64,000 nucleotides of DNA from Flavobacteriales bacterium (lineage in GTDB: Bacteria; Bacteroidota; Bacteroidia; Flavobacteriales_F; PHOS-HE28): NCBI GenBank assembly GCA_019638085.1, contig JAHBUL010000001.1, positions 127,630 to 191,629 on the forward strand, read 5' to 3'. Under the pieces are notes generated by a model, which ran no database searches, had not been told where the DNA came from, and was given only the letters and a program-made list of their open reading frames with translations. The position numbers and the translations under genes were made by a program. This document shows positions 12,255 through 48,650 of the stretch, in pieces. Positions within the stretch are counted from its first letter, which is position 1; the number at the start of each line of letters is the position of its first letter.

Positions 12255-12369
12255 GTTGTATAGCTTGCAAGGGCGAACCCACGCACAAAATAGCGTCAGG
12301 AACGTGCTGGAAGAGCGACGATCGAGTCCGGTCGTCGAACAAACCAAGCCCACTACGCGTCATGCAATT

Positions 12370-13644: not shown

Positions 13645-13651
13645 TCGGAAA

Positions 13652-19427: not shown

Positions 19428-19766
19428 ATGTCAAAGAAGTACTATGACCCTGTAGACCTCGGCAAATTCGGCGACATCGCCGAGTTCCAGAAACCCATGG
19501 CGGATAAATTCTTCGCATGGTACAATGAAGTCTTCAAGGAGGGCGCTCTTACCGCCCGGGAGAAATCCTTGATCGCACTGGCTGTTGCACATGGCGTGCA
19601 ATGCCCGTATTGCATCGATGCATACAGTACCGATGCACTGGAAAAGGGCTGTAGTGAGGCCCAGATGATGGAGGCCGTGCATGTGGCTGCCGCGATCCGT
19701 GGAGGGGCGACATTGGTGCATGGCACGCAAATGATGAATCACGTAAAGGCCCTGACCGGAGCATGA
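19428..19766 (+). CDS. AhpD/carboxymuconolactone-decarboxylase-family peroxidase-like protein (arsenosugar-biosynthesis-associated type)
   Basis: CxxC motif VQCPYCIDAY in an AhpD-like fold; directly precedes the ArsS gene. Confidence 0.75.
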   Translation: MSKKYYDPVDLGKFGDIAEFQKPMADKFFAWYNEVFKEGALTAREKSLIALAVAHGVQCPYCIDAYSTDALEKGCSEAQMMEAVHVAAAIRGGATLVHGTQMMNHVKALTGA

Positions 19767-20803
19767 AGAGCCTGTTGGCACAACAGGCCCTATTGAGCGC
19801 AGCCTCCGAGCAGCGGCGTGTGCTGGAGGACCCGGGTTCGGCGCTGCCTTTTTTTGCCAAAAAACTGGCCGAGAGCGGATTGCCCGAGTTGCGTGCCACC
19901 GAGCTGGAAGTGCTGCAGCTCAACCTCGGCCGCATGTGCAACCAAACCTGTGTACACTGCCATGTGGATGCCGGGCCGGATCGCAAGGAGCGCATGAGCC
20001 GCGAGGTGATGGAGGATTGCCTGCGCTCCTTGGATGCGCACCCCGTGCGTACCGTGGACCTTACTGGAGGCGCCCCTGAGATGCACCCTGATTTCCGCTG
20101 GTTCGTGGAGCGATTGAGCGAAACGGGATGCCACATCATCGTGCGATGCAACCTCACCATCATCCTGGCCAACAAGAAGTACCACGACCTGCCTGAATTC
20201 TACCGGAAGCACCGCGTGGAAGTAGTGAGCTCGCTCCCGTTCTATACTGCCGACCGCACCGATCGCCAACGCGGGAAGGGCGTGTTCGAGCATTCCATCG
20301 AAGCCCTGAAGATGCTGAACGCCGTGGGCTATGGCATGCCCGATAGCGATCTGGAATTGAACTTGGTCTACAATCCGGCCGGCGCATTCTTGCCGGGATC
20401 ACAGGACGAACTGGAGAAGCAGTTCAAGAGAAGTTTGATGGCGGACCATGGGATCCAGTTCCACAAGCTGTTCGCCATCACCAACCTGCCGATCAGCCGA
20501 TTTCTGGAATACCTCGTGCGCACCGAACATTACGTGGGATACATGGAGCGCTTGGTCAACGCCTTCAATCCCGCTGCGGTGGCCGGTGTGATGTGCCGCA
20601 ACATGGTCTCCGTATCGCACGATGGGAGCATCTACGATTGTGACTTCAACCAGATGCTGGACCTGCCGTTGAGCGCTGGAATGCCACGCCACATCCGCGA
20701 CCTGGCCGATGCGAACGTGGCGGGCAGGCTGATCGTGACCGGCAGACATTGTTACGGATGCACCGCCGGCGCGGGCAGTAGTTGTGGCGGCTCCGTGGCA
20801 TGA
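19763..20803 (+). CDS. arsS: ArsS-family radical SAM protein with Cys-rich C-terminal domain
   Basis: Radical SAM CNQTCVHCH cluster motif and C-terminal CYGCTAGAGSSCGGS tail; ATGA overlap with the upstream gene. Confidence 0.8.
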   Translation: MKSLLAQQALLSAASEQRRVLEDPGSALPFFAKKLAESGLPELRATELEVLQLNLGRMCNQTCVHCHVDAGPDRKERMSREVMEDCLRSLDAHPVRTVDLTGGAPEMHPDFRWFVERLSETGCHIIVRCNLTIILANKKYHDLPEFYRKHRVEVVSSLPFYTADRTDRQRGKGVFEHSIEALKMLNAVGYGMPDSDLELNLVYNPAGAFLPGSQDELEKQFKRSLMADHGIQFHKLFAITNLPISRFLEYLVRTEHYVGYMERLVNAFNPAAVAGVMCRNMVSVSHDGSIYDCDFNQMLDLPLSAGMPRHIRDLADANVAGRLIVTGRHCYGCTAGAGSSCGGSVA

Positions 20804-21408
20804 GTACCAGGCCATTGCTTCTTGTATTTCTGCGCGCTCCCGTGCTGGGGAAAGTAAAAACGCGCTTGGCCGCCACCATGGGGAAGGAAAGGGCGCTGGA
20901 GATCTACAAGCGATTACTTCAGCACACCATTGAACAAGGCGCGGCCTTGGACGTGGACCGTCAGGCGTGGTACGCTGATGAAATTGCCGACCCGGAACCT
21001 TGTGCCGAACTGGGCTACTCGGTGTATGTGCAAGCAGGCAGGGACCTCGGCGATCGTATGAAATGCGCGTTCGGATCAGGTTTCTCCGCCGGTCACGGTC
21101 CCATCATCATTATCGGTACGGACCTCCCCCAGCTGAGCGCCGCTCTGCTTCGCGAAGCCTATATGGCGCTGGAAACCCATGATGCGGTGATCGGTCCCGC
21201 CAACGACGGTGGCTACTACCTATTGGGCTTACGAGAGCCATGTGAGGAGGTCTTCAGCGGGAAGGCTTGGAGTTCGGACAGTGTATATGCACAGACCATT
21301 GAAGACCTGCGTCAGCTAGGTCGCACCTACCATACGCTTCCGACATTGATCGACATTGACACGGCGGAGGACCTCAAAAGCGTTGAAATTCCGGGAGTGG
21401 CTCGCTGA
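20800..21408 (+). CDS. TIGR04282-like (DUF2064) nucleotidyl/glycosyl-transferase-like protein associated with ArsS clusters
   Basis: N-terminus STRPLLLVFLRAPVLGKVKTRL typical of DUF2064; ATGA overlap with arsS. Confidence 0.7.
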   Translation: MSTRPLLLVFLRAPVLGKVKTRLAATMGKERALEIYKRLLQHTIEQGAALDVDRQAWYADEIADPEPCAELGYSVYVQAGRDLGDRMKCAFGSGFSAGHGPIIIIGTDLPQLSAALLREAYMALETHDAVIGPANDGGYYLLGLREPCEEVFSGKAWSSDSVYAQTIEDLRQLGRTYHTLPTLIDIDTAEDLKSVEIPGVAR

Positions 21409-21613: not shown

Positions 21614-22354
21614 ATGCTACAGATCAAGGACCTCCATGCCCGCATTGAAGGCAAGGATATTTTGAAAGGCCTCAACCTGGAGGTGAACGCAGGTGAGGTA
21701 CACGCCATTATGGGACCCAACGGAAGTGGCAAAAGCACCTTGGCCAACGTATTGGCCGGGCGCGCCGAATACGAGGTGACCGGGGGAAGCGTGAAGTACT
21801 TTGGAGAGGACCTGCTGGAACTGGCCCCGGAAGAGCGGGCGTGGAAGGGCATCTTTCTCGCCTTCCAATATCCGGTGGAGATCCCCGGGGTAAGCAACAT
21901 GAATTTCCTGCGTACTGCATTGAACGAAGGGAAGAAGGCCCGGGGTGAGGCTGAGCTCAGCGGTAAGGACTTCCTCGCTTTGGTCCGCGAACGCGCCAAG
22001 CTGGTGGAGATGGATCCCGCCCTGATGAACCGCAACCTGAACGTGGGGTTCAGCGGGGGTGAAAAAAAGCGCAACGAGATCTTCCAAATGGCCATGCTGG
22101 AGCCCAGACTGGGCATCCTCGATGAGACAGATAGCGGATTGGACATCGACGCATTGCGCGTGGTTGCAAGCGGAGTGAATACCCTGCGCGCCAAGGACAA
22201 CGCCTTTATCGTGGTGACCCACTACCAGCGCTTGCTGGATCATATCATTCCGGATGTGGTCCACGTGATGGCTGATGGCAAGATCATTCGCAGTGGTCCC
22301 AAGGAGTTGGCCTTGGAGTTGGAGGAAAAAGGATACGATTGGGTGAAAGCGTGA
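21614..22354 (+). CDS. sufC: Fe-S cluster assembly ATPase SufC
   Basis: Walker A GPNGSGKST and ABC signature FSGGEKKR, SufC-like throughout. Confidence 0.9.
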   Translation: MLQIKDLHARIEGKDILKGLNLEVNAGEVHAIMGPNGSGKSTLANVLAGRAEYEVTGGSVKYFGEDLLELAPEERAWKGIFLAFQYPVEIPGVSNMNFLRTALNEGKKARGEAELSGKDFLALVRERAKLVEMDPALMNRNLNVGFSGGEKKRNEIFQMAMLEPRLGILDETDSGLDIDALRVVASGVNTLRAKDNAFIVVTHYQRLLDHIIPDVVHVMADGKIIRSGPKELALELEEKGYDWVKA

Positions 22355-22460
22355 TCGCCGATCAGCCGATGAAATACCGATGCCGCTACACAAGTTGCAC
22401 GGAACTCGTGGAACGCATCGTTACCGTCGAGGCAAGGACTCGACCCCTATAAGCATTGAG

Positions 22461-23786
22461 ATGAGCACCGATCAGATAATGGAACTTAATAAGGACGGGA
22501 GATCTCCCGACACGTTGGATATATCAGGCCCCAAGGCCAGTGTGATGGCGCTGTTGCAAGATGGCACCTGGCCCTTGGCTGCAGAAGCTTTTGCTCGGGT
22601 ACAGGAGTTGCCCATCCCCGACAGGCGGACCGAAATGTGGAAGTACACACGGGTCGCCAAGCTCTTCACCGAAACCTATGGCAAGCCCTTGGGCAATGTG
22701 ATCGTGGAACTTCCGCCGCGCATGCCTTTTCCGACCACCCGCGTGGTCTTCGTGAACGGGCATTTCCGCCCCGACCTCAGTGATGACCGGAAGACGGATA
22801 AAGGCGTTGTGATCGACAGCATCTCGCATCACCTGAGCCATGGGCCGCTAAAAGCACTTTACGGACAGATCGCACCCATTGGTGACCGATTGTTCACGGC
22901 GATGAACATGGCTTCGCCCACGGATGGCCTGTTCATCCTGGCCACCAAGGGCTCGAAGACCAGCAAGCCCATCCATGTGCTGCGCATTACCACGCCCATG
23001 AGCGATGGCCAAGCCATGTTGATCCAACCGCGGGACCTTTTCATGCTGAAGGAAGGTGCTGAGGTGGAGGTGATCGATGAGCATATCTCGATCGGGAACA
23101 CCACGTCCTCGCTGGTGAACGGCGTGCGTGAAAGTGTTGTGGGTGAGGGCGCAAACCTCACGCTGCACCTGTTGCAGAATGAACCCGATGGTCCGGCCGA
23201 TATCGGACTGGACAGCGTGAAGATCGCGGCCAAAGGGAATTTCAGCGTCGATACCACGACGCTCTACGGTTCGCTGGTGCGTAACGAATTGAACGTGGCA
23301 CTCGATGGTGCCGAGGCGCATGCCGAACTCAACGGCGTGTACCTGCTCAACGGTACAGCGCACTGCGACAACCACAGTTACATCGGGCACAACGTGCCGG
23401 ATTGCACCAGCGACGAGCTGTACAAGGGCGTAATTGCCGACAAGGCCACGGGCGTATTCAATGGCAAGGTGTACGTGAAGCAGGATGCCCAACGCACCCG
23501 TGCCTATCAACGGAACGCGAATATCCTTCAGGGTGAACATGCCCGCGTGTATTCCAAGCCCGAACTGGAGATCTACGCGGATGACGTGAAGTGCAGCCAC
23601 GGATGTACGATCGGCCGCATGGATGAAGAGGCCATCTTCTACCTCCGCTCACGTGGTGTAAGTGAGGAAGAGGCGCGCCGCATGATGTCGCATGCGTTCA
23701 TGGTGGATGTGCTGGAGCGCGTTACGAATCCGGATTGGAGAAAACACTTGGGCGATATGATCGATGCAAAGTTGGAAGAGCTATGA
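22461..23786 (+). CDS. sufD: Fe-S cluster assembly protein SufD
   Basis: SufBD-family C-terminal region; positioned between sufC and sufS. Confidence 0.85.
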   Translation: MSTDQIMELNKDGRSPDTLDISGPKASVMALLQDGTWPLAAEAFARVQELPIPDRRTEMWKYTRVAKLFTETYGKPLGNVIVELPPRMPFPTTRVVFVNGHFRPDLSDDRKTDKGVVIDSISHHLSHGPLKALYGQIAPIGDRLFTAMNMASPTDGLFILATKGSKTSKPIHVLRITTPMSDGQAMLIQPRDLFMLKEGAEVEVIDEHISIGNTTSSLVNGVRESVVGEGANLTLHLLQNEPDGPADIGLDSVKIAAKGNFSVDTTTLYGSLVRNELNVALDGAEAHAELNGVYLLNGTAHCDNHSYIGHNVPDCTSDELYKGVIADKATGVFNGKVYVKQDAQRTRAYQRNANILQGEHARVYSKPELEIYADDVKCSHGCTIGRMDEEAIFYLRSRGVSEEEARRMMSHAFMVDVLERVTNPDWRKHLGDMIDAKLEEL

Positions 23787-23877
23787 AGAGGAGAACCGCC
23801 AAGACGCAAAACACGCCAAGAATTCACGCCATCCGGTGCATTTCACGTTGCGCTTAGCGTCTTTGCGGTAAAAAACA

Positions 23878-25134
23878 ATGACGAACTCAATCTCAGCGGT
23901 AAAGCCTGCCTTCGACGTGGAGGAGATCCGTGCACAATTCCCGATATTGAAGGAACTGGTGCATGGCAAGCCGCTGGTCTATTTCGATAATGCCGCAACC
24001 AGCCAGAAGCCGCGTCGTGTGATCAAGGCCGAAAGCGCCTACTACGCCAAGATCAACGCGAACGTCCATCGCGGAGTGCATACGCTGAGCACCTTGGCCA
24101 CCGATGCACAGGAGGCCGCTCGCGAGATCATCCGCGCGCACATCAACGCGAAGCACGTACATGAGGTGATCTTCACCGCTGGTACGACGGCCAGCATGAA
24201 TCTCGCGGCAAACAGCCTCGGACAATTGTTATTGAAGCCGGGTGATGAAGTACTCATCAGTGGCATGGAACACCACGCGAACATCGTTCCCTGGCAATTG
24301 GTCTGTGAGCGATATGGCGCCACGTTGAAGGTGATCCCCATCACGGATACCGGTGAGTTGGACATAGCAGCAGCTGAACAGATGATCGACTCATCAGCTG
24401 ATCGCTTAAAGATCCTATCGCTCACCCACGTCAGCAACACGCTCGGCACGATCAATCCGGTCAAGCAGTTGATCGCTGACGCGAAAAAGCGGGGCATCGT
24501 TACGGTACTCGATGGTGCCCAAGCGGTGCCGCACATGGCCGTGGATGTACAGGATCTCGGCTGCGACCTGTACGCATTCAGCGGACACAAAATGTATGCA
24601 CCCACCGGCATCGGCGTGCTATATGGTCGCGAGGAATTGCTGGAGCAAATGCCACCTTGGCAAGGCGGCGGCGAGATGATCGACCAGGTCACCTTTGAGA
24701 AGACCACCTTCGCCAAGCTACCCTTCAAGTTCGAGGCGGGTACGCCGCACATCGCGGGCATCATCGGCTTGGGCGAGGCCTTCCGCTGGATGCAGGACTA
24801 TGACCTGGAGGCCATGGCAGCGCACGAACATGCGCTGCAGGAACATGCAACCAAGGAGCTGCTCGCCATCGAGGGCTTGCGCATCATCGGAACAGCGAAG
24901 GAGAAAGTGGGTGTGATCAGCTTCGTCATTGATGGGGTTCATCATTACGACCTAGGCACGCTGCTCGACCAGCAAGGTATCGCGGTGCGCACGGGCCACC
25001 ACTGCACACAGCCGTTGATGGACCACTTCGGTATCAGCGGGACCACGCGGGCAAGCTTCGCACCTTTCAATACGACCGCTGAAGTGGATGCCATGGTGGC
25101 GGCCACGAAGAAGGCGGTGAAGATGTTGCGATGA
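23878..25134 (+). CDS. sufS: Cysteine desulfurase SufS
   Basis: Class-V aminotransferase fold with SufS-type motifs (FSGHKMYAPTGIG; RTGHHCTQP). Confidence 0.9.
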   Translation: MTNSISAVKPAFDVEEIRAQFPILKELVHGKPLVYFDNAATSQKPRRVIKAESAYYAKINANVHRGVHTLSTLATDAQEAAREIIRAHINAKHVHEVIFTAGTTASMNLAANSLGQLLLKPGDEVLISGMEHHANIVPWQLVCERYGATLKVIPITDTGELDIAAAEQMIDSSADRLKILSLTHVSNTLGTINPVKQLIADAKKRGIVTVLDGAQAVPHMAVDVQDLGCDLYAFSGHKMYAPTGIGVLYGREELLEQMPPWQGGGEMIDQVTFEKTTFAKLPFKFEAGTPHIAGIIGLGEAFRWMQDYDLEAMAAHEHALQEHATKELLAIEGLRIIGTAKEKVGVISFVIDGVHHYDLGTLLDQQGIAVRTGHHCTQPLMDHFGISGTTRASFAPFNTTAEVDAMVAATKKAVKMLR

Positions 25135-25553
25135 ACACCTCATTGAAAGAAGCCCAACAGGAGATCGTGGACGAGTTCGCCATGCTCGGCGATTGGCAGG
25201 ACCGCTATGAGCACCTGATCGAGCTGGGGAAGGAACTGCCATTGATCGCACCCGAACTCAAGACGGATGAGAACCTTGTGCGCGGATGCCAGAGCCGGGT
25301 ATGGCTCACCGCTGAAGATCGGGGAGAAGCCATCCATTTCACTGCGGACAGTGATGCGATGATCACCAAAGGCTTAGTAGCGCTGCTGGTACGTGTGCTG
25401 AACGACCGCACGCCCGAGGAGATCATGGGCACTCCGCTCACCTTCATCGATGCCATTGGTCTGCGCGAACACCTTTCACCCAACCGCAGCAACGGCCTCG
25501 TGGCCATGCTGGACCAGATGAAGCGGTATGCGTTGGTTTATTCCTCGAAATGA
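25131..25553 (+). CDS. sufE: Cysteine desulfuration protein SufE
   Basis: SufE family with conserved Cys in RGCQSRVWL; overlaps the sufS stop. Confidence 0.85.
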   Translation: MNTSLKEAQQEIVDEFAMLGDWQDRYEHLIELGKELPLIAPELKTDENLVRGCQSRVWLTAEDRGEAIHFTADSDAMITKGLVALLVRVLNDRTPEEIMGTPLTFIDAIGLREHLSPNRSNGLVAMLDQMKRYALVYSSK

Positions 25554-25573
25554 GAGCATCGGAGATACATACT

Positions 25574-25631
25574 TGTCTTATGTCCAATGTCCCACGCTTT
25601 GCAAGCGTCATAGGACATCGGACATGAGACA
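25574..25631 (+). repeat. Nested palindrome/stem-loop in the sufE-sufT intergenic region
   Basis: 19-nt arms TGTCTTATGTCCAATGTCC / GGACATCGGACATGAGACA (17 Watson-Crick pairs, 1 G-U, 1 mismatch) enclosing the perfect inner palindrome ACGCTTTGCAAGCGT. Confidence 0.6.
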
Positions 25632-25658
25632 ATACCACCGCACCTGCGGCACATTAAA

Positions 25659-25979
25659 ATGACCAACGAAGAGAAAAAGCAATTGGAGGAGCGCGTGATC
25701 ATGATGCTCAAGACCGTCTATGACCCGGAGATCCCCGTGGACATCTACGAGCTGGGCTTGATCTACGACGTGGTGGTCCGCGATGATGCAAGCATCTACA
25801 TCAAGATGACCTTGACCAGCCCGGCTTGTCCGGTGGCAGGCACCCTGCCTGGCGAGGTGGAGGAGAAAGTGGCCCAGACCATGGGGGCAAATGGCGCCAA
25901 GGTGGACCTCACCTTCGAACCGGCTTGGGACCGCAGCATGATGAGCGAGGCAGCGATGCTGGAACTCGGGTTCATGTGA
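25659..25979 (+). CDS. sufT: SUF-system Fe-S assembly protein SufT (DUF59/MIP18 family)
   Basis: DUF59 signature (VYDPEIPVDIYELGLIY...TLTSPACP). Confidence 0.8.
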   Translation: MTNEEKKQLEERVIMMLKTVYDPEIPVDIYELGLIYDVVVRDDASIYIKMTLTSPACPVAGTLPGEVEEKVAQTMGANGAKVDLTFEPAWDRSMMSEAAMLELGFM

Positions 25980-28696: not shown

Positions 28697-30001
28697 TCAG
28701 GTTCCGATGGCCATCGGCTTCCTGAACCCGCGTGCCTCCCGGATGATGAACGCTCCCAGTACAACGTATTCGATCGCTAGCCACCAGTACGGCTGTGCAT
28801 ACGGCACACTGCCATAGGTGAGGTAGGTGGGCACGATCAGTAGTGACCAGAGGACAGGCCATCGCCAACGGGTCAGCGGCGCTAAAGCCACCAACGGCAG
28901 GATGTACCACGGATGCACCACTTGCGAGCAGCTCAGGTAGATGGCCAGCAGCCACAACATCGCCTCCGGCCATGGCGTACGCCTGGTTCTCCACAGCCAA
29001 AGCGAATACGCACCTAAGCCGATCAATGCGATCGCGCCCAGCAGCCCGGTGCCTTTCACCAGGGCATCACCAAACAGCCGGCGCAGCCCTTCGAACAGAA
29101 CGCCGTTGAATTCGAGATAGCTCACAAAGAGCTTAAGGATGCTGCCAAGGTGCGCGAAGAACCCGGGAGTGTAGAGCGGGATCCAAGAGGCCACGAAGAG
29201 GATGAGCGTGATCGCGAAAAAGCGGACCGAGCGCCGCCAGCCGAGCTGCGAGGGGATCCATGCGAGTAGGATCAAGGGCCACAACTTGGCGGCTGCGGCG
29301 ATGGCGATGAGCACCGCTGCCGCATCGTAGCGCTTCTGGCGGAACAGGTGGATCGCCCAAAGGCAAGGCGCGATCATCAGCACTTCGCTGTGCAGGTTCA
29401 CGTTGAATTCCATCAGCACCAACGGATTCAGTGCGTAGAGGCCCACCTTCCGCACGCGATCGGGTGCATCCTTCAAGAGCACGCCCAGCGCGGTGATCGT
29501 GGCCAGGTCGAAGACGATGGACACGAAGCGCAGCACGAGCGTGGAGTACCATATATCACCTTGGCCCAAGCCTGCCGCGATCGCGTATACCAACTGCGCG
29601 ACCGGCGGGTACACGGAATGGAAGTGCGGTGAATTCAGCTTCGCATACAGTGCGGGCGTGAAGACCTGCGGCATTGTTTTCACCAGTTCATCCGGCGTGA
29701 ACGCAAATGGGGAGATCCCGTGGATCGAGCAGAGGCCGTCCCAGATGTAGCGGTAGTGATCGTCCGTCCAGGTGATCGGCGCGAGGAAGAGCAGTACCCG
29801 CAGCACGACCGCCACGACCATGAGCTGCTTCCATGTCAGTTGCGATCGGCGATCGACCCACAGATAGGTGAAGAAGGCCGTGCCGAAACCGAGCAAGAGT
29901 TGCAGGCTTTGCGAGCGTGATGGACCATAGCCCAGAAAGAGCACGGCAGCAGCAAGCAAAATGATCGGGACGAGGCGTTGAGCGATGCGCGTGCTCATCA
30001 T
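28697..30001 (-). CDS. GT-C fold membrane glycosyltransferase (DUF2029/GT87-like mannosyltransferase family)
   Basis: Polytopic membrane protein resembling DUF2029; start at internal Met 30001, overlapping the stop of the upstream GT2 gene. Confidence 0.65.
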   Translation of the reverse strand: MMSTRIAQRLVPIILLAAAVLFLGYGPSRSQSLQLLLGFGTAFFTYLWVDRRSQLTWKQLMVVAVVLRVLLFLAPITWTDDHYRYIWDGLCSIHGISPFAFTPDELVKTMPQVFTPALYAKLNSPHFHSVYPPVAQLVYAIAAGLGQGDIWYSTLVLRFVSIVFDLATITALGVLLKDAPDRVRKVGLYALNPLVLMEFNVNLHSEVLMIAPCLWAIHLFRQKRYDAAAVLIAIAAAAKLWPLILLAWIPSQLGWRRSVRFFAITLILFVASWIPLYTPGFFAHLGSILKLFVSYLEFNGVLFEGLRRLFGDALVKGTGLLGAIALIGLGAYSLWLWRTRRTPWPEAMLWLLAIYLSCSQVVHPWYILPLVALAPLTRWRWPVLWSLLIVPTYLTYGSVPYAQPYWWLAIEYVVLGAFIIREARGFRKPMAIGT

Positions 30002-31470
30002 GTGGTAGTGCGCAGCGAATGCACCACGGAGTACCAGCCCACCAGCCCGAAGCCGAGCGCCAACATGATGTGGTAGGGCAAGAGCCCGAGGTCGCCGGTG
30101 CGGAAGCCGATCACGATGCCCCATACCGCATAAGCCGCGATCGCGCCTTCCAACACAGTGATCGGACTGATCACGCTCTTCCAATAGCCATCACGGCGGA
30201 TCGCCTTGTCGCCTTTGTCGCCACCGAGCTTCGGGGTCCGCAAGAACGGAGTGCGACGTCCTGCGTAGCCCTCCAGTACAGCGATGGCATTGTGCAGCGA
30301 AAGGCCCATGCTTACGGAAAGGAACAACGGGAAGGTCCACAGGAACCGCAGGGTGCCGCGCCATTCGGGCATGTCCTTGCGGTGGGCGATCCAATAGAAC
30401 ACCACCAGCACCAGCAAGGCGAACGTGAAGACGATCGCAATGTTGAACAGCATGCGCAGTTCGGGATGGTCCTGTTTCACCAGCAGCACGGGTACGCTAA
30501 GCAGGGCCGTGCCGAGGATGCACACGAAAACGGTGCTGTTCATCAAGTGGAAGAGCGCGTGGACCTTCGTGGAGAATGACAACGCGGGATCGCGGAGCAC
30601 GCTCGGTAGGTTTTTCACCACGCACTCCGCCGCGCCCTTGTTCCAGCGGTATTGCTGCGTCTTCAGCGCGTTCATGGCAGCGAGCAGTTCGGCGGGCGAC
30701 ACCACGTTCTCCAAGTAGTGGAACTGCCAACCTTTCAACTGTGCGCGGTAGCTCAGGTCGAGGTCCTCGGTGAGCGTATCGGGTCGCCAACCGCCCGCAT
30801 CCGTGATGCATGCCTTGCGGCAAACACCCGCCGTGCCGTTGAAATTGATGAAGCGGCCCATGGTGTTCCGGCCCACCTGCTCTACGGAGAAGTGCGCGTC
30901 CAGCCCGAAGGCCTGCAGGCGCGTGAGCAGGTTGCTGTCGCGGTTGATGTGGCCCCAGCAGGTCTGCACCATGCCGATCCCCGGATCGTTGAACCACGGG
31001 ACCACCGCTTGGAGCAGGTCCGTTGGTGGAAGGAAATCGGCATCGAAAATGGCGATCAGTTCACCCTTCGCGCGTTCCGTTCCGTAGGCCAACGCACCGG
31101 CCTTGAAGCCCGTGCGGTCCGGCCTGCGGATCAGCGTTATGTCAATGCCCTGCGCCTGCCAATGCGCAACGCGTTCCGCGGCCAACCGGGTGGTCTCGTC
31201 CGTGCTATCGTCCAGCACCTGCACCTCGAAGCGGTCGTGCGGCCAATCCATTTTCGCCACTTGGTCGATCAGCCGTTCCACCACGTGGCGCTCGTTGTAC
31301 AGGGGCAATTGCACCGTTACCAATGGCCGCTTGCCGAAGACGGGCGGGGGCATCATCCGCACGTGCTTTTCCTTGTGCAGGTAGGCCCAGGTGAGCTGCA
31401 ACTGTACCACGCTGAAGAGCAGGATGAAGCTCAACAACAGGCCGTAAACGATGAGCAGTGCGATGGCCAT
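29998..31470 (-). CDS. Processive family-2 glycosyltransferase (cellulose/chitin-synthase-like, membrane-embedded)
   Basis: DDSTDET and downstream D motifs, QQYRW (QxxRW) motif, N-terminal TM plus C-terminal TM bundle; start at internal Met 31470. Confidence 0.75.
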   Translation of the reverse strand: MAIALLIVYGLLLSFILLFSVVQLQLTWAYLHKEKHVRMMPPPVFGKRPLVTVQLPLYNERHVVERLIDQVAKMDWPHDRFEVQVLDDSTDETTRLAAERVAHWQAQGIDITLIRRPDRTGFKAGALAYGTERAKGELIAIFDADFLPPTDLLQAVVPWFNDPGIGMVQTCWGHINRDSNLLTRLQAFGLDAHFSVEQVGRNTMGRFINFNGTAGVCRKACITDAGGWRPDTLTEDLDLSYRAQLKGWQFHYLENVVSPAELLAAMNALKTQQYRWNKGAAECVVKNLPSVLRDPALSFSTKVHALFHLMNSTVFVCILGTALLSVPVLLVKQDHPELRMLFNIAIVFTFALLVLVVFYWIAHRKDMPEWRGTLRFLWTFPLFLSVSMGLSLHNAIAVLEGYAGRRTPFLRTPKLGGDKGDKAIRRDGYWKSVISPITVLEGAIAAYAVWGIVIGFRTGDLGLLPYHIMLALGFGLVGWYSVVHSLRTTT

Positions 31471-32162
31471 CAGCGGTATTTGATGATGGTGGTGATGATC
31501 TTCCAGCCCGCCAGCACCGAGCCCTTCACCGTGCCGCTGATCTTCGAAAAGCCGATCCGCTTGCGGTAATCCACGGGCACTTCCGTGATCCGCAGGCGCT
31601 GTTTCGCGGCCTTCAGTTGCATCTCCACCGTCCACCCGAAGGTACGATCGCGCATGCCCATGGCCTGAAGCGCTTCCCAACGCACGGCACTGAACGGGCC
31701 GAGATCAGTGTATTTCACGCCGTAGAAAAGCTTGAGCATTCGTGTTGCCAACCAGTTGCCGAAGATCTGCTGGGGCATCATGCTGCCCGCATCACGATGG
31801 CCCAACGCACGCGAACCGATCACGAAGTCGGCATGTCCCTCGACGATCGGCGTGACCACTTCCGTCATCTGCTCCGGGTGGTCGCTGTTGTCCGCGTCGA
31901 TGAAAACCACGATGTCCGGCGGCGGCTCGTGCGTGGCTACCTGCGCAATGCCCTTCAAGCAGGCATTGCCGTAGCCGCGCTCCGGCTGGTCCACCACGAT
32001 GGCGCCCGCAGCCCGGGCCATCTCGCTGGTCTTGTCGCTGCTGGCGTTGTTCACCACCACGATATGGCGCACCAATCCTTTAGGGATGTCGCGCACCACC
32101 AGGCCCACGGCCTCCTGCTCATTGAAAGCGGGGATGATGACGTCGATGATCGGTGCTGGCAT
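31470..32162 (-). CDS. Family-2 glycosyltransferase, dolichyl/polyprenyl-phosphate sugar synthase-like
   Basis: N-terminus IIPAFNEQEAV and DAD-type motif FIDADNSD; stop overlaps the start of the next gene. Confidence 0.75.
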   Translation of the reverse strand: MPAPIIDVIIPAFNEQEAVGLVVRDIPKGLVRHIVVVNNASSDKTSEMARAAGAIVVDQPERGYGNACLKGIAQVATHEPPPDIVVFIDADNSDHPEQMTEVVTPIVEGHADFVIGSRALGHRDAGSMMPQQIFGNWLATRMLKLFYGVKYTDLGPFSAVRWEALQAMGMRDRTFGWTVEMQLKAAKQRLRITEVPVDYRKRIGFSKISGTVKGSVLAGWKIITTIIKYR

Positions 32163-32303
32163 GGCCCTCTGGCGGGGTTGCGAAGAAACGGCTTCGCACG
32201 CCGATGTGGTTTACATACGGTGTAGCGGTGCCTCGTGGTTGGTCGTGATCCGAGGAGGAACTGACAGTTTCGAAACAAAGGCAACGGTGAAGCCCGCAAA
32301 TGC

Positions 32304-33878
32304 CTAACGCAACGTTGCGCCAGTCTTCCCGATGGCGATTGGATCGCTGCTGAAACGCCCAGGGACCTTTCCGTTCTCCAACTTCAGTACTCCCCTTGGG
32401 CACGCCGCTGCGCAGATGCCGCAACCCACGCAGCTGGAGCGCACGATGTTCTCGCCGCGTTGCGCGTAGCTGCGCACGTCGATGCCCATTTCGCAGTAGG
32501 TGCTGCAGTTGCCGCAGCTGATGCACTGCCCGCCGTTGGTGGTGATGCGGAAGCGCGAGAAGAAGCGCTGTTGCATGCCGAGGATCGCCGCCATGGGGCA
32601 ACCGAAGCGACACCACACGCGGCTGCCCATCAGCGGATAGAAGCCCACGCCTATCACGCCGTTGAAGATGGAGCCGATCGCGAAGCCGTAGGTTTTCCGC
32701 AGCGGATAGCTCTGCACGAAGAAGATGTCGCCGCGACCCGTGAAGTAGGCCCACGCCGTGAAACCGATGAGCAGCACCGCGACGCCGATGCCGACGAAGC
32801 GGGCGGTCCGGTCGATCTCCTTCACCATGCCGGGCCGGATCAGCAGTACGGCGGCCACCGCACCGAGGACGATCACGATGATGCCGAGCAACATGCCGCG
32901 CGTCACCCAAAAGCCTTTCGCACTGTCGCTGCCGAGGTAGCTGTAGATCAGCGCTGCCGTCATCAACACCGCGAAGACGAGCACCGCATGGATCACCCAG
33001 CGCTCGATCTTCCAGGCCTTCACGCTCTTGTCGCTGAGCTGCCGGAAGGGATCGCCCGCCGTTTCCGCCAAGCCGCCGCAACCGCAGACCCACGAGCAGT
33101 ACCAGCGCTTGCCGTAGAAGTAGGTGAGGATAGGCGAAATGATGAAGATCATCGCCACGCCGAAGAGCAGCATGAACAGGCCGAAACCGCCCGCGTCGAT
33201 CATGCCCTTCACGCTCCAATCATCGAAGAAGTAGTAGTTGAGCGGCCACATGTTCTTGAAGTCGTTGTACGGCAAACTGAGCCGCGCCAATACTTCCGGG
33301 ATCAAGAATGCGAAGCCGAGCTGGAAGAACATCACCGAGCTGGTGCGCACCACTTCGTACTTGTTGTGCCGGTATTTCAAAATGAATTTGATGCCCATTG
33401 AGAGGATGGCCACCGTGTAGAGCGTGCCGTAGACGAACCACTGCGAGGCCGGGTTGCCACTTAGAAGCCTGCTGAGCGGATCGAAGAGCGCGATGATGCC
33501 GGTGTTCGCTTTGCCATCGCCAGTGAGGCCGAGGTATTGCGGAAAGAAATAAAGCACCACGTAGAATCCCGTGAGCAGGATGCCGACCACCCACGCCACC
33601 GCGCCGCGCGAGGTGAGGCTATTGTGCCAAACGCCGTCGTTCTTGATGCCCGCCGGCCGATGCGCATACGAGCGCCAAGCATAGCCCACCGCGCCAACGC
33701 CGATGGCGAGCAGGGCTGAAGTGAGCCAAAGGCCCGCATGCGGAATTTGCTCCATCGGCAGGCTCATCAGCAAGCCGAGAACGCCCAAGGCCGCCAACGC
33801 CAGCGCGCCTTTTTGCAAGCCGTCCAAGCTCCCGCTGTGCGGTGCCGCGATCGAGAGGCTGTGGACCGAACGGCTCAT
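32304..33878 (-). CDS. Polytopic 4Fe-4S polyferredoxin of the NapH/CcoG(FixG) family
   Basis: Membrane Cys motifs CSWVCGCGG and CRFGCP plus a C-terminal 2x[4Fe-4S] ferredoxin domain (CISCGNCSTYC...CVGCGICAAACP). Confidence 0.75.
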   Translation of the reverse strand: MSRSVHSLSIAAPHSGSLDGLQKGALALAALGVLGLLMSLPMEQIPHAGLWLTSALLAIGVGAVGYAWRSYAHRPAGIKNDGVWHNSLTSRGAVAWVVGILLTGFYVVLYFFPQYLGLTGDGKANTGIIALFDPLSRLLSGNPASQWFVYGTLYTVAILSMGIKFILKYRHNKYEVVRTSSVMFFQLGFAFLIPEVLARLSLPYNDFKNMWPLNYYFFDDWSVKGMIDAGGFGLFMLLFGVAMIFIISPILTYFYGKRWYCSWVCGCGGLAETAGDPFRQLSDKSVKAWKIERWVIHAVLVFAVLMTAALIYSYLGSDSAKGFWVTRGMLLGIIVIVLGAVAAVLLIRPGMVKEIDRTARFVGIGVAVLLIGFTAWAYFTGRGDIFFVQSYPLRKTYGFAIGSIFNGVIGVGFYPLMGSRVWCRFGCPMAAILGMQQRFFSRFRITTNGGQCISCGNCSTYCEMGIDVRSYAQRGENIVRSSCVGCGICAAACPRGVLKLENGKVPGRFSSDPIAIGKTGATLR

Positions 33879-35176
33879 GCGATAACGGTATTTCCTTGTT
33901 TGAATGAAGCACGGATGGCGGGCTCGGAACGGTGGTGGAGCTCGGGGTCGAATGCGGCTTCGTGCAAGTGTTCCACCACGTGATCCACGGTCGTTCTTTC
34001 GCGCAGCCAGCGATCGAACACTTCATGCCGCAAACGGAAGCCGAAGCTGTTCACGCCGTGCAGCACGCGGTTTTTCGCGTTCCACACCAAGTGCAGCGCG
34101 GACTTTCCGTTGGGATGTTCCCAGTAATGTCCGGCCTCGCCGTCCTGCAATTCGTTGCGCACCCAGCCGTAGGTCTGGTATTCAATGTCGAAGAACTTCG
34201 CGCTGTTGAACCAGATGCCGGGATCGTACGCGGTGCGATCGCCAGTGAGCGTGCGGGCCACGGTCTCTCCCATCAATCGACCGGTGTACCACACCTGCTC
34301 GATGTTCTTCCGCTGCGGATCGGGATGTTCGTGGAATTCCACGCAGTCGCCGATCGCGAAGACGTCCGCTGCGCTGGTCTCCAAGTAGGTGTTCACCAGC
34401 ACGCCCTTTTTCGTTTTGATGCCCGGACTTTCCTTCAGCCACTTGATGTTCGGGTGTACGCCGACCGCAAGCCCGACAAAGCCGCAATCGATGGTGTCGC
34501 CGCCCTTCGTTCGCACCGCTTGCACGCGTCCGTCAGCACCCGCGAGCACTTCTTCCAATTCCGTGTTGAAATGCAGGTCCACGCCATGCTCGCGCATGTG
34601 CCGCGTGATCAGGTCCGCTTCCTGCTTTGGAAGAATGCCGCCCCAGAAACTGTCCTCGCGCACGAAGAAGGTCACTTCAATGTTCCGCGTGCGCAGCATC
34701 TCCGCCATCTCCACGCCGATCAATCCGCCGCCCACGATCACCGCGCGCGAAATGCCCTTCGTGTTGGCTTCCATCGCTTCCACGTCCTGCAAGCTGTACA
34801 GGCCCTGCACGCCGGGCAGGTCCTGCCCGGGCCAGCCGAACATATTGCTCTCGCTGCCGGTGGCGATGATGAGTTTGTCGTAGTCGACCGCACTGCCATT
34901 GCTCAACATCACGGATTTTTTTTCGGTGTCGATCCGCGCCACCTTGGCGTGCTTCAACGCGATGCGGTTCTTTGCCCAGAAATGGTCCTCGTAGGGCTTG
35001 ATGTCGCGATAGCGCATGTGGCCCATGTACAGGTACATCAGCGCGGTGCGGCTGAAGAAATGCTCGCTTTCCTTGCCGATCACGGTGATCCGCGCATCGC
35101 TCCGTTTGCGGATGTGCCGCGCCGCCGTGATGCCGCTGATGCCGTTGCCGATGATGACGATGCGATCGTTGCTCAT
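33875..35176 (-). CDS. FAD/NAD(P)-dependent pyridine-nucleotide-disulfide-family oxidoreductase
   Basis: N-terminal IVIIGNGISG Rossmann motif and a second NAD(P) motif VIVGGGLIG; ATGA overlap with the polyferredoxin gene. Confidence 0.8.
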   Translation of the reverse strand: MSNDRIVIIGNGISGITAARHIRKRSDARITVIGKESEHFFSRTALMYLYMGHMRYRDIKPYEDHFWAKNRIALKHAKVARIDTEKKSVMLSNGSAVDYDKLIIATGSESNMFGWPGQDLPGVQGLYSLQDVEAMEANTKGISRAVIVGGGLIGVEMAEMLRTRNIEVTFFVREDSFWGGILPKQEADLITRHMREHGVDLHFNTELEEVLAGADGRVQAVRTKGGDTIDCGFVGLAVGVHPNIKWLKESPGIKTKKGVLVNTYLETSAADVFAIGDCVEFHEHPDPQRKNIEQVWYTGRLMGETVARTLTGDRTAYDPGIWFNSAKFFDIEYQTYGWVRNELQDGEAGHYWEHPNGKSALHLVWNAKNRVLHGVNSFGFRLRHEVFDRWLRERTTVDHVVEHLHEAAFDPELHHRSEPAIRASFKQGNTVIA

Positions 35177-35227: not shown

Positions 35228-35563
35228 ATGTACCTGACAACACGGCTAGCCTTCTCCCTGTTCTTAGGACTTGCCACTCTGCATCCTGGGAAATTGCAGG
35301 CGCAGAAGATCGATGGGGTTTGCTTCAGCGCTCCACCGCGAGAGGACTGCAACAGCAACATTGCGCATGTGGAAGCCATCGGCGCCAACTGGCTCGGAGG
35401 ATACAAGAGCGGCCACGAAGAGCGACAAGGGAATGGATTTTCACCGCAAGGGAAGGCAGCCTTGAACGTGCTGCGCAAGGAGAACAAGGGGGAGTACGGA
35501 GAGCACAGAAAGTATGAATCAACGCAACCGTGCTATCTTCGGGAGAACCGGATGGGATCCTGA
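35228..35563 (+). CDS. Candidate small secreted hypothetical protein (about 111 aa)
   Basis: 3' portion of long antisense ORF 33932..35563 that lies beyond the oxidoreductase gene; Met at 35228 with signal-like MYLTTRLAFSLFLGLATL and a charged C-terminal half. Confidence 0.3.
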   Translation: MYLTTRLAFSLFLGLATLHPGKLQAQKIDGVCFSAPPREDCNSNIAHVEAIGANWLGGYKSGHEERQGNGFSPQGKAALNVLRKENKGEYGEHRKYESTQPCYLRENRMGS

Positions 35564-38204: not shown

Positions 38205-38531
38205 CTAAATGCTGAAGCTTTCACCACAGCCACAGGTGCGGCTGGCATTGGGGTTGACGAACTGGAAACCCTTCCCGTTAAGGCCGCCACTGAATTCCAA
38301 TGTGGTACCCAACAAGTAGAGGAGGCTTTTCTTGTCCACCACCACCTTCACGCCATTGTCCTCGAACACTTTGTCGCCATCCTGCATCTTGTCGTCAAAG
38401 ACCAGATCATAGGAGAGGCCACTGCATCCACCGCCCTTAACGCCCACACGCACAAAGTGCTGTGGCCCCCGGCCTTCCATGCCGAGAAGTTTGGAGAATT
38501 CTTCTTTTGCGTTGTTACTGACCTTGATCAT
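38205..38531 (-). CDS. sufA: A-type Fe-S cluster carrier (SufA/IscA/ErpA, HesB family)
   Basis: HesB family with CSG...CGCGESF cysteine ligands. Confidence 0.85.
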   Translation of the reverse strand: MIKVSNNAKEEFSKLLGMEGRGPQHFVRVGVKGGGCSGLSYDLVFDDKMQDGDKVFEDNGVKVVVDKKSLLYLLGTTLEFSGGLNGKGFQFVNPNASRTCGCGESFSI

Positions 38532-45195: not shown

Positions 45196-45272
45196 GTTCC
45201 CGAAAGTAGCATTGCACACGATCGCTGGGAAGTTCGCCCCCTAGCGACCGTGCTGCTGAATTGAGTGTTCAG

Positions 45273-45345
45273 TGGGCCCAGCAGGATTTGAACCTGCGAC
45301 CAACGGATTATGAGTCCGCTGCTCTGACCGCTGAGCTATAGGCCC
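45273..45345 (-). tRNA. tRNA with CAT anticodon (elongator Met, or Ile2 if lysidinylated)
   Basis: Cloverleaf folded by hand: acceptor GGGCCTA/TGGGCCC, anticodon stem GCGGA/TCCGT, loop CTCATAA, T-arm GCAGG-TTCAAAT-CCTGC; CCA not encoded. Confidence 0.8.
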
Positions 45346-47099: not shown

Positions 47100-48650
47100 C
47101 GAGCTCGGGTTTCTCGTTTCCAAGTCCAGCATCCCGGCGCTTATTCTATGACATCTCCAAACGCTTGTTGAGTTTTTTGAGGCATGAGGAACTCCGGGCT
47201 TGGGCGGGAAGTCCTTTGGTCTCCCCGCCCATGGCCGAAGCCCGTCGTTCGTCGGGTTGATCCCTGGCGGGTTGCTCTCCAGCATGGCCCGCTTCCGTTT
47301 GGCCCGATGTGGCAAAGTTGGTCGATGTATTGCTGATCATGCCCACCTCCTCAGGGACCGCTTGGACCTTGCGTGGCTCGTATGGTCTTCCCTCCCTGAT
47401 CACGGCGCATACCCTGAGAATGATCTTGCACCGAATAGCGTTCAGTACGCTCATGGGGTGCTTGCCCTCGGCCACCTTCCGGCGATAGTAGGCGCTGAGC
47501 TCGTTGTCGCATTGGATCATGCCTAGTGCCGCCATGTGTAGCAATGATTTCAATCGCTTGTCGGCATGATGCGATACTCTAGAGCGGCCTTTGATACTGG
47601 AGCCGGAGGTATGCTCGTGCGGAGCCACACCAGCATGGCAGGCCAGTTGGCGGCCCGTGCACATCCGAGTGAAGAGATCAGTAGCAGCCAGCAAGTGTGC
47701 GGCCAATACAGGTCCTACGCGAGGAATGGTGAGCAAGAGTTGGTACTGCTCCTGCATGATGGGATCTTGGGCAATGTGGTCCTTGATCATCTTGTCCACC
47801 TGTTTCACCATCGCCTTGCTGTCCTTGATGCGCCTTGCGGAGTACTCCTTGAACACCTTCTGCAGGGGCTTTGCCACACAGGTATTCAGGTCGCTGTTGT
47901 ATACGCCATGCTTGACTCCGTCAACCACCATCCGGTCCCGGAACGCCAGTAGCTGTTTGAGTTCCAATGTGGCCAAGGTGGTCGGACCAGCTACACGCTT
48001 CTTGTCCTGGTACCGCATGGCGTAGTCGGCAATGCGCAGCGCATCGATGCGGTCGTTCTTGCCGCGTACCATGCCCATGCGCTGCCGGATGTCCATGGGA
48101 TGGGCGACCCACGTGGGCACTTGGCCCTTCACCAATGCGGCCAACACGGTGTTGGAGTAATGCCCGGTGGGTTCCAAACAGGCCAAGCAGTTATTGCGGT
48201 CCACACCAGCTTCACGGTTCCACCGCTTCAAGAGCGAGTTGACCGCGGCACTGGTGTTGTCCACTTCGGCCTGACGCACCATGTGGCCTTGGCCATCGAG
48301 CAAGGCGAAGTCCAGCTTGGCCTTGCTCACATCTATCCCGATGTAATGCATCGTTGTTTAGTTTTGGGTTACACCTGTGGTCTCCGGAGGGGCTGTGCGC
48401 AGGGTCTTGATGCTCGATGACTCTAATAGGCCGCTAGCCTGATATTCTATTCGAGCCTTGGACCCGAGTGGACGGCAGGTACCGATAAGCGCCCTAGGTC
48501 ATTGACCTGTCGGGTGTTCTGGTTCACCTGCCGCCCTGCTCAGTTCTCTCCGGGGATCCACTTTTCGTCCTAAAGTTGGTTCAAACAACCAAGGGCAAGT
48601 GTAGAGTCAGGTGTTTTCCGAGTGCTTCGCCTTTGCGCCATCCGATCACA
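47100..48650 (-). mobile_element. IS110-family insertion sequence (boundaries approximate)
   Basis: Single DEDD-type transposase gene with a long 5' leader, lodged between two chromosomal genes; IS110 elements lack terminal inverted repeats, so ends cannot be fixed by eye. Confidence 0.6.
47146..48351 (-). CDS. IS110-family transposase
   Basis: N-terminal MHYIGIDVSKAKLDFALLD DEDD-type domain plus a C-terminal transposase_20-like domain. Confidence 0.85.
   Translation of the reverse strand: MHYIGIDVSKAKLDFALLDGQGHMVRQAEVDNTSAAVNSLLKRWNREAGVDRNNCLACLEPTGHYSNTVLAALVKGQVPTWVAHPMDIRQRMGMVRGKNDRIDALRIADYAMRYQDKKRVAGPTTLATLELKQLLAFRDRMVVDGVKHGVYNSDLNTCVAKPLQKVFKEYSARRIKDSKAMVKQVDKMIKDHIAQDPIMQEQYQLLLTIPRVGPVLAAHLLAATDLFTRMCTGRQLACHAGVAPHEHTSGSSIKGRSRVSHHADKRLKSLLHMAALGMIQCDNELSAYYRRKVAEGKHPMSVLNAIRCKIILRVCAVIREGRPYEPRKVQAVPEEVGMISNTSTNFATSGQTEAGHAGEQPARDQPDERRASAMGGETKGLPAQARSSSCLKKLNKRLEMS

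Follow-up and report, generated by a model that had tools for sequence, protein, structure and literature searches.

A flavoprotein and membrane polyferredoxin gene pair at the centre of a conserved arsenosugar and envelope-glycan island in Bacteroidota

What might a membrane polyferredoxin of the CcoG/NapH type reduce when its gene is coupled to that of a flavoprotein and the two stand upstream of a series of glycosyltransferase (GT) genes? The question is raised by a gene pair in a 64,000-nucleotide stretch of a Flavobacteriales genome (assembly GCA_019638085.1, contig JAHBUL010000001.1, positions 127,630 to 191,629 of the forward strand), the whole of which we refer to as the window. The original prediction described the pair as an orphan module that could send electrons across the membrane to a periplasmic substrate. 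Our analysis agrees with it on both open reading frames, their strand and coordinates, the ATGA overlap between them and the 141-nucleotide gap to the first glycosyltransferase gene. The pair is however no orphan: it is the centre of a conserved Bacteroidota island, and its downstream glycosyltransferase genes, which the original prediction treated as an operon apart, are its most constant neighbors, present in about 83% of loci. The reading that we favor, with a probability of roughly one half, is that of an autonomous membrane reductase, running from NAD(P)H through flavin adenine dinucleotide (FAD) to iron-sulfur clusters, that has been recruited to an arsenosugar and envelope-glycan island. 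The features of the pair are as follows.

33875-35176, minus strand: flavoprotein gene, 433 residues, with FAD and NAD(P)H Rossmann domains and no signal peptide (open reading frame and Pfam)
33875-33878, minus strand: ATGA overlap, the TGA stop codon of the flavoprotein gene overlapping the ATG start codon of the polyferredoxin gene
32304-33878, minus strand: membrane polyferredoxin gene, 524 residues, with ten predicted transmembrane helices and Fer4_5 and dicluster domains (Pfam)
33072-33101, minus strand: first cysteine motif of the polyferredoxin, YCSWVCGCGG (C261, C265, C267), a CX3CXC just past helix 6
32595-32612, minus strand: second cysteine motif, CRFGCP (C423, C427, P428), a classical Fer4_5 CX3CP just past helix 10
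32385-32540, minus strand: C-terminal 2x[4Fe-4S] ferredoxin domain with two CX2CX2CX3C(P) motifs (C452/455/458/462 and C483/486/489/493-P)

The flavoprotein has the hallmarks of the ferredoxin/rubredoxin-NAD(P)+ reductase class of the Pyr_redox_2 superfamily, namely two Rossmann domains, a C-terminal domain and no redox-active cysteine (Pyr_redox_2, 1.3e-53, 182.7 bits; Pyr_redox, 2.5e-21, 76.4 bits). Among solved structures the best matches are 3lxd and 3fg2 (ferredoxin / putative rubredoxin reductase), TodA, BphA4 and putidaredoxin reductase; AorC (8c0z_E) is a solved homologue at E = 1.5e-28, and the comparison with solved structures also brought out a resemblance to quinone reductases of the NDH-2/FSP1 type. 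No specific NCBIfam equivalog was matched at its cut-off. The best partial matches were to the N-terminal part of NirB, CoA-disulfide reductase (CoADR), PadH, NorW and dioxygenase ferredoxin reductases, and the PadH model matches over the full length of the protein (147 bits). In the pyridine-nucleotide-disulfide family named by the original prediction, "disulfide" is a family label only: the sole cysteines, C231 and C278, are by our judgement of their positions not the redox-active pair of disulfide reductases. The CoADR models reach 155.6 bits against 578.8, and the active-site cysteine or CXXXXC pair near the flavin that marks the disulfide reductases proper, whether for CoA-disulfide, glutathione or thioredoxin, is lacking. 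The protein reads FFSRTALMY, with no cysteine, around residue 43, near which we take the active-site cysteine of CoADR to lie. Because the Rossmann fold begins at residue 5 and no active-site cysteine is present by position, the flavoprotein is a cytoplasmic NAD(P)H:iron-sulfur reductase and not a disulfide reductase.

For the polyferredoxin, Pfam bears out both the NapH/CcoG-like signature and the C-terminal two-cluster ferredoxin domain of the original prediction. Fer4_5 (PF12801) scores 27.6 bits against a cut-off of 22 over residues 242-280, and among the dicluster models Fer4_9 (34 bits, cut-off 27), Fer4_7 (30.6, cut-off 27) and Fer4_10 all exceed their thresholds. The first motif is a CX3CXC where NapH and CcoG have CX3CP. 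All 13 cysteines are invariant in 64 aligned Bacteroidota sequences, so that no cluster-binding residue is missing on closer alignment, and they are kept even in a homologue of 33% identity; the first motif is also invariant in the distant long forms, and the eight cysteines of the ferredoxin domain in 11 distant homologues. About 150 positions are invariant in the alignment of the 64. A basic conserved loop, KYRHNKY, adjoins the cysteine site. Homologues at least 58-60% identical over their full length are found throughout Flavobacteriales, Saprospiraceae and Chitinophagales, under names no more specific than "4Fe-4S binding protein" or "polyferredoxin". Among 1.84 billion representative proteins, clustered at 50% identity, a search returned 2461 representative clusters at E < 1e-3 and 328 at the stricter E < 1e-30. 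Among curated models none but generic domain models is matched at its cut-off, and no solved structure resembled the membrane domain, the query being a model of moderate confidence. The family also varies in length. Short forms of about 360 residues are common in Myxococcota, Bradymonadota and Acidobacteriota, and long forms of 580-660 residues (P0124-P0132 and P0138; for example L087:2956-4950) have one helix first and then an extension of about 150 residues, which has no Pfam match and which we take to be extracytoplasmic and helical. Several of the long forms are without the variable helix pair 8-9.

An AlphaFold2 model of the polyferredoxin, with a mean predicted local distance difference test (pLDDT) score of 67, contains ten transmembrane helices; the membrane core scores 70-90 and the ferredoxin domain below 50. 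Averaged across the alignment, the loops assigned to the inside carry 16.7 lysines and arginines and those assigned to the outside 5.0. With ten helices, the positive-inside rule therefore places the N-terminus, the CX3CXC loop, the CX3CP loop and the ferredoxin domain in the predicted topology together in the cytoplasm, on the side of the flavoprotein, and we consider this arrangement likely.

The two genes behave as one unit. In 114 of 115 non-redundant loci with enough flanking sequence the flavoprotein gene lies directly upstream of the polyferredoxin gene on the same strand, and the translational coupling proposed for the window recurs, with an ATGA overlap at 25 of 154 related junctions and most gaps falling between -22 and +15 nucleotides. 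Outside Bacteroidota too, the pair is kept in a metagenome-assembled deltaproteobacterial genome, and in Bradymonas one gene is inserted between its two members. Since the polyferredoxin is at least 58% identical across Bacteroidota classes and the flavoprotein gene adjoins it so constantly, the conservation of the pair goes far beyond what chance would leave. A structural precedent for a first step from FAD to a cluster is provided by AorABC, in which AorC is docked on a [4Fe-4S] polyferredoxin with its FAD 9.5 A from the nearest cluster (PMC10413684). Taken as a whole, we are confident that the two genes encode a single NAD(P)H-to-iron-sulfur reductase. The module is old and autonomous, standing alone in Saprospiraceae, Myxococcota-like and Bradymonas genomes. 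In some more distant Fer4_5/dicluster membrane proteins of 680-780 residues (P0213, P0226; L090:9388-11739) the chain begins with a fused Pyr_redox_3 flavoprotein of a different subfamily, a one-chain counterpart of the two genes whose architecture is analogous, with no evidence of orthology.

What surrounds the pair gives the first indication of what it could serve. In the window it is followed on the same strand by three glycosyltransferase genes, here called GT2s, GT2L and GT87.

31470-32162, minus strand: GT2s, 230 residues, Pfam Glycos_transf_2, a polyprenyl-phosphate GT2-like protein resembling AglJ and Dpm1 (best NCBIfam match AglJ, below cut-off)
29998-31470, minus strand: GT2L, 490 residues, a membrane GT2 of the cellulose-synthase / PgaC / GT21 type, whose start overlaps the GT2s stop by 1 nucleotide
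28697-30001, minus strand: GT87 / MptA_B-like GT-C membrane glycosyltransferase (Pfam GT87, 33.6 bits, cut-off 25), joined to GT2L by a 4-nucleotide ATGA overlap

We gathered about 170 related loci from species-representative genomes, metagenomes and single look-ups, clustered their open reading frames, built hidden Markov models (HMMs) from the recurrent clusters and named these by Pfam and NCBIfam. The key identities stand above curated NCBIfam cut-offs: ArsS at 445-448 bits (cut-off 300), TIGR04282 at 195-203 (134), ArsM of the arsenosugar type at 557-582 (400), TIGR04283 at 241 (182) and the rhodanese NF045521 at 188 (145). Counted over 75 non-redundant loci and up to 6 kb from the pair, GT2s and GT2L are each found in 83%, DUF547 in 76%, GH113 and the GT87-like gene each in 67%, TIGR04283 in 48%, TIGR04282 in 36%, PNP in 33% and ArsM in 27%; roughly one locus in four also has an OlsE-like FA_hydroxylase in the island. 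Of 84 loci, 60 (71%) have one or more curated arsenosugar genes (ArsS, ArsM, TIGR04282 or TIGR04283) within 10 kb of the pair. When only the 74 loci with both flanks are counted, 55 combine arsenosugar or DUF547 genes with glycosyltransferase genes, 6 have the former only, 5 the latter only and 8 neither. The most constant neighbors of the pair are thus the glycosyltransferase genes and DUF547, not ArsS.

The order of genes changes from group to group around the unchanged pair. The consensus in Flavobacteriaceae is ArsS-Rhod-TIGR04282-PNP-ArsM-(OlsE-like)-DUF547-TIGR04283, a divergent GH113 gene, and then flavoprotein-polyferredoxin-GT2s-GT2L-GT87. Ferruginibacter, of the order Chitinophagales, has TIGR04282-DUF547-flavoprotein-polyferredoxin (L019, L028), and a Salibacteraceae contig (L087) interleaves ArsM and an AhpD-like gene with the glycosyltransferase genes. 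Among further loci, L089 is a compact ArsS-TIGR04282-ArsM-flavoprotein-polyferredoxin and L126 reads ArsS-TIGR04282-PNP-ArsM-flavoprotein-polyferredoxin-GT2s, so that both have ArsM, in the same orientation, as immediate upstream neighbor of the pair; in L159 an ArsM-PNP-TIGR04282-ArsS block diverges from the adjoining pair. More than ten different genes occur as the nearest upstream neighbor. DUF547 is the tightest neighbor outside the glycosyltransferases and often directly adjoins the pair; L088 consists of two DUF547 genes and the pair only, and in L154 too DUF547 is the sole partner. The DUF547 proteins (for example L037:6061-6804 and L088:5157-8489) have a signal peptide. Their invariant motif, R-x-H-F-x3-C-x4-C-P, could be a site in the periplasm that is redox-active or binds a metal(loid); the papers on DUF547 that we found concern plants, other eukaryotes or phages, and none deals with a bacterial function.

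The pair is therefore the fixed centre of an island not only in Flavobacteriales but also in Ferruginibacter and in numerous metagenomic contigs without taxonomic assignment. The arsenosugar gene set is linked to it in most of the Flavobacteriales loci sampled as well as in the other two groups, whereas no NCBIfam model scoring above its cut-off for the pair is either family-specific or an arsenosugar model. Without selection, a linkage that has come through many independent rearrangements across several families and orders would be difficult to account for, and we infer, with a slight lean in its favor, that the pair is functionally part of the island. We found no paper on the polyferredoxin family or on its link to arsenosugar genes, and the embedding of the pair in an island of arsenosugar and envelope glycosyltransferase genes does not appear in the literature searched.

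How would such a reductase work? From the domains, the invariant cysteines and the predicted topology we infer a scenario in which NAD(P)H reduces the FAD of the cytoplasmic flavoprotein by hydride transfer, and the FAD hands on electrons one at a time to the pair of [4Fe-4S] clusters in the C-terminal domain of the polyferredoxin. These clusters would feed a five-cysteine site, composed of the CX3CXC and CX3CP motifs, at the cytoplasmic surface of the ten-helix domain, from which electrons would reach a substrate bound in the membrane or at its inner face. The pair would thereby supply reducing power for the chemistry of the island, which brings together arsenosugar genes, periplasmic thiol proteins (DUF547 with its invariant CX4CP, and the rhodanese) and a glycosylation set of the polyprenyl-phosphate type (GT2, GT2, GT-C and GH113). 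The likeliest mode, modelled on CcoG, would be the reduction of a thiophilic metal(loid) at the cysteine site, for example to keep methylated arsenic trivalent for ArsM and ArsS; the KYRHNKY loop beside this site would fit a metal(loid) acceptor. Alternatively, the pair could re-prime the ArsS cluster or reduce a lipid-linked intermediate. That the substrate is an arsenical is suggested by analogy with CcoG, and we regard it as tentative, with the odds leaning clearly the other way. The same caution attaches to the fullest version of the idea, in which the pair would belong, in a role hitherto unrecognised, to the core enzymes of organoarsenical metabolism in Bacteroidota of sea and soil: an NAD(P)H-driven reductase of metal(loid)s, similar to CcoG, with a five-cysteine site at the inner membrane face that feeds ArsM and ArsS and couples arsenosugar synthesis to polyprenyl-phosphate export or glycosylation (GT2, GT2, GT-C, DUF547 and rhodanese). 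We think this version doubtful.

Several observations weigh against recruitment of the reductase to the island. In the 8 of 74 loci with neither set of partners (Saprospiraceae-type), and in other phyla, the pair stands alone among housekeeping genes that offer no functional clue, and its basic chemistry must therefore be more general than arsenosugar synthesis. Conversely, both Cytophagales ArsS loci that we examined, in Spirosoma taeanense (L171) and Hymenobacter busanensis (L172), have no pair within 10 kb, which rules it out as a universal part of ArsS clusters. Arsenosugar synthesis in Synechocystis has been described with arsM and arsS alone. Furthermore, once primed, ArsS catalyses a redox-neutral reaction (PMC13598754). 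It is not obvious, then, why a dedicated reductase of high capacity would be required, and the idea of a reductase devoted to each ArsS turnover is weakened. The loci sampled are mostly from Flavobacteriaceae, in which shared synteny is partly inherited. Finally, the topology of the polyferredoxin is a prediction, and the low score of the ferredoxin domain in the model makes the geometry of the cysteine site uncertain. The two Cytophagales loci are themselves minimal, with an AhpD-like gene or ArsM next to ArsS, with or without TIGR04282, and no DUF547 or glycosyltransferase genes within 10 kb.

Some of the same facts can be read differently. The pair could be a housekeeping electron-input module, either an NAD(P)H:menaquinone oxidoreductase or the donor to membrane di-iron hydroxylases and desaturases of the FA_hydroxylase family (OlsE-like, CrtZ-like), much as rubredoxin reductase and rubredoxin serve AlkB, and its place in the island would then be inherited synteny with no shared pathway. 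The solitary loci of the Saprospiraceae type and of other phyla are what this explanation expects, as are the high identity across classes and the size of the family. The flavoprotein resembles both the rubredoxin and ferredoxin reductases and the NDH-2/FSP1-type quinone reductases, NapH is by its NCBIfam name a quinol dehydrogenase subunit, and the OlsE-like FA_hydroxylase found in about a quarter of loci is also present in the window, at 9242-10114. The hydroxylase is however confined to that minority of loci, no quinone-site motif can be identified in the pair, and inherited synteny does not readily account for a linkage to DUF547, glycosyltransferase and arsenosugar genes that survives so many independent rearrangements in several families and orders. 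We consider this explanation unlikely, if the best of the alternatives.

The constancy of DUF547 raises another possibility, closer to the original prediction, in which the polyferredoxin is a transmembrane conduit to periplasmic acceptors such as DUF547, rhodanese and Redoxin-type lipoproteins, in the manner of NosR and NapH with their periplasmic partners. DUF547 is within 6 kb in 76% of loci, often adjoining and in some loci the sole partner; it has a signal peptide and the CX4CP, the island rhodanese has a signal peptide and an active-site cysteine, and a Chitinophagales locus carries genes for multi-Redoxin proteins that diverge from the pair. The periplasmic loops of the polyferredoxin are also strongly conserved (for example FDPLS and NMWPLNYYFF). 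But these loops contain no invariant cysteine, histidine or methionine in the alignment, and the polyferredoxin has neither a haem-type histidine pair nor a transmembrane cysteine. No Pfam match to a periplasmic FMN_bind domain such as that of NosR was obtained for the polyferredoxin or for its N-terminally extended long forms. Electron tunnelling is limited to roughly 14 A, and a bilayer is far wider than this if no intermediate cofactor bridges it. With all iron-sulfur sites predicted to be cytoplasmic, this distance limit leaves direct transfer through the bilayer unsupported, as no cofactor path is visible in the predicted structure. Electron delivery across the membrane, as proposed in the original prediction, is accordingly not supported, and we rate the conduit as less likely again than a housekeeping module.

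The last alternative is best judged against the systems that the pair resembles. Like CcoG/FixG/RdxA and E. coli YccM, the polyferredoxin is polytopic, has cysteine motifs directly past transmembrane helices and ends in a 2x[4Fe-4S] domain. Unlike CcoG, it has ten helices and not four or five, a CX3CXC as its first motif and a constant flavoprotein partner; it lacks the immunoglobulin-like FixG_C domain, and Fer4_18 scores 23.4 bits against a cut-off of 27. No CcoG model was among the best 25 of 39 NCBIfam matches (E<=0.01), none of which 25 reaches its cut-off, and no linkage to ccoNOQP or ccoGHIS was seen in any context examined. The flavoprotein of the pair is not known as a partner of CcoG or NapH. 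The pair would come with a built-in electron donor. For CcoG, a Cu(II)-reducing Fer4_5 protein that has two [4Fe-4S] clusters and two Cu sites, the physiological donor is unknown (PMC7558416). Homologues of the YccM type are likewise without the immunoglobulin domain (PMC7558416), so the absence of FixG_C alone would still allow a YccM-like relative.

The second set of relatives comprises NapH/MauN and NosR/NirI, with which the polyferredoxin shares a transmembrane Fer4_5 unit with CX3CP followed by a cytoplasmic two-cluster domain. The similarity is significant but weak and confined to the last 100 residues or so: TIGR02163 (NapH/MauN) gives 48.8 bits against 213.05 over residues 413-501 and NF007013 gives 40.2 against 234 over residues 399-501. 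NapH, a protein of four helices, has the periplasmic NapG as its partner, and NosR has an N-terminal periplasmic FMN-binding domain; neither that partner nor that domain is present here. Neither the annotated parts of the window nor any of the related contexts examined contain napG, napA or mau genes, and the same parts of the window and the locus of a 94%-identical relative (L084) hold no nap, cco or terminal reductase gene, as the original prediction had stated for the vicinity of the pair. Nor is the pair next to cbb3 oxidase or nap genes in any of the relatives' contexts examined. A third likeness is to AorC-AorA of the tungsten aldehyde oxidoreductase of Aromatoleum and to PadH-PadF of phenylglyoxylate dehydrogenase, in which an NAD(H) flavoprotein is combined with a [4Fe-4S] ferredoxin partner; the ferredoxin domain of the polyferredoxin weakly matches the PadF model. 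Those are soluble catabolic enzymes in which electrons pass from a catalytic subunit to NAD+, whereas the ferredoxin domain of the pair is fused to a ten-helix membrane domain and has no known catalytic subunit. As its scores are far below cut-off and the defining extra domains and neighborhoods are absent, the polyferredoxin is a protein of the CcoG/NapH type, coupled to a flavoprotein of the AorC/PadH type, yet is not a member of NapH, CcoG or NosR. A relocated CcoG or NapH orthologue, acting as cupric reductase in cbb3 assembly or as the nap quinol dehydrogenase subunit, has in its favor the Fer4_5 and dicluster architecture, the weak NapH/MauN matches and the name "NapH" that some JGI records automatically give to distant homologues, and against it the model scores, the ten helices, the CX3CXC, the missing FixG_C, the subthreshold Fer4_18, the absence of cco and nap genes and the constant flavoprotein partner, and is very improbable.

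The preferred reading, a reductase recruited to the island, also has to accommodate the arrangement of the window, where the island is broken up. The arsenosugar genes are displaced by about 11 kb from the pair, and three island fragments can be recognized, at 9.2-11.7 kb, 18.6-21.4 kb and 28.7-35.2 kb. The cluster HMMs found no ArsM (NF038099), PNP, TIGR04283 or DUF547 in the 64-kb window. The features concerned are these.

9242-10114, plus strand: OlsE-like FA_hydroxylase, matching a cluster HMM from related loci
10352-10858, plus strand: periplasmic rhodanese NF045521 (188 bits, cut-off 145), matching a cluster HMM
10885-11745, plus strand: recurrent 286-residue protein with signal peptide, matching a cluster HMM
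12205-14641, plus strand: ergothioneine genes, EgtB (524 bits, cut-off 360) and an EgtD-like methyltransferase (276 bits, just below its cut-off of 290.9)
18565-19143, plus strand: extracytoplasmic function (ECF) sigma factor, directly upstream of TIGR04169-ArsS-TIGR04282
19428-19766, plus strand: TIGR04169 peroxidase-like protein (NCBIfam, 170.8 bits, cut-off 120)
19763-20803, plus strand: ArsS, TIGR04167 (NCBIfam, 448 bits, cut-off 300)
20800-21408, plus strand: TIGR04282 (NCBIfam, 202.6 bits, cut-off 134)
21614-25979, plus strand: SufC, SufD, SufS, SufE and DUF59, one part of a split suf operon
35228-35563, plus strand: GH113 remnant of 111 codons
36708-38156, minus strand: SufB, of the other part of the split suf operon
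38205-38531, minus strand: IscA, of the same part as SufB
45272-45345, minus strand: tRNA-Met, the sole RNA gene detected in the window

If the segment from about 21.45 to 36.65 kb were turned round in one inversion, the two parts of the suf operon would be joined again and ArsS-TIGR04282 would come to lie directly upstream of the pair, where other lineages have them. Because the 94%-identical relative has the same split layout, this is not an assembly artefact of the window; we found no repeats at the endpoints of the proposed inversion. The GH113 gene, which normally diverges from the flavoprotein gene, is here reduced by an in-frame internal deletion of about 250 residues, residues 1-56 and 58-88 of the remnant corresponding to 19-74 and 323-353 of the intact 354-residue GH113 of the same relative. 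A sigma-factor cluster related to the one in the window follows the GT87-like gene in the Flavobacterium loci L001 and L005, which together with the position of the ECF gene directly upstream of the arsenosugar genes suggests that the ECF sigma factor regulates the island. The ergothioneine genes, placed between fragments of the island, may also be relevant, in that a low-molecular-weight thiol made beside arsenic genes could act as reductant or ligand. About 1.8 kb from the tRNA-Met gene, an open reading frame at 47146-48351 (minus strand) whose N-terminus begins MHYIGIDVSKAKLDF may be that of an IS110-family transposase.

Whether the pair and the glycosyltransferase genes form one transcription unit turns on the spacer between them.

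32308-32319, minus strand: palindrome CGCAACGTTGCG, directly upstream of the TAG stop codon of the polyferredoxin gene and extending to an 8-bp hairpin that takes in the TAG
32163-32303, minus strand: spacer of 141 nucleotides from the polyferredoxin gene to GT2s, with no convincing terminator or known RNA element

The palindrome at the 3' end of the gene is thus real, but separate termination, which the original prediction had suggested, is not supported: only three U residues and no U-run follow it, a terminator consensus scan did not call it, and the 141-nucleotide spacer folds no better than shuffled sequence (z = -0.31) and has no match in Rfam. In relatives the spacer has a median of 120 nucleotides and often holds an inserted gene. 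The 94%-identical relative has an RraB-like gene of 105 residues at this position (L084:11576-11893), and about one third of loci encode a 130-160-residue repeat protein there; such insertions mark the spacer as an insertion hot spot. As the spacer is variable and sometimes bears an inserted gene, the pair and the glycosyltransferase genes may be transcribed separately.

The polyferredoxin family is large and strongly constrained, is present in most of the Flavobacteriales loci sampled and has so far had only generic names. Its pairing with the flavoprotein provides a natural example of a membrane iron-sulfur protein of the CcoG/NapH type with an identifiable donor, which CcoG lacks. The place of the pair in the island makes an anonymous polyferredoxin a testable candidate for the missing redox step of bacterial arsenosugar synthesis, a process with a bearing on the marine arsenic cycle and on the arsenic content of seafood. 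The neighboring genes of the island could likewise be the missing downstream steps, and if so they would be candidates for the reactions that follow ArsS. If the core-enzyme version of the idea is true, Flavobacteriia would be producers of envelope-bound or lipid-bound arsenosugars.

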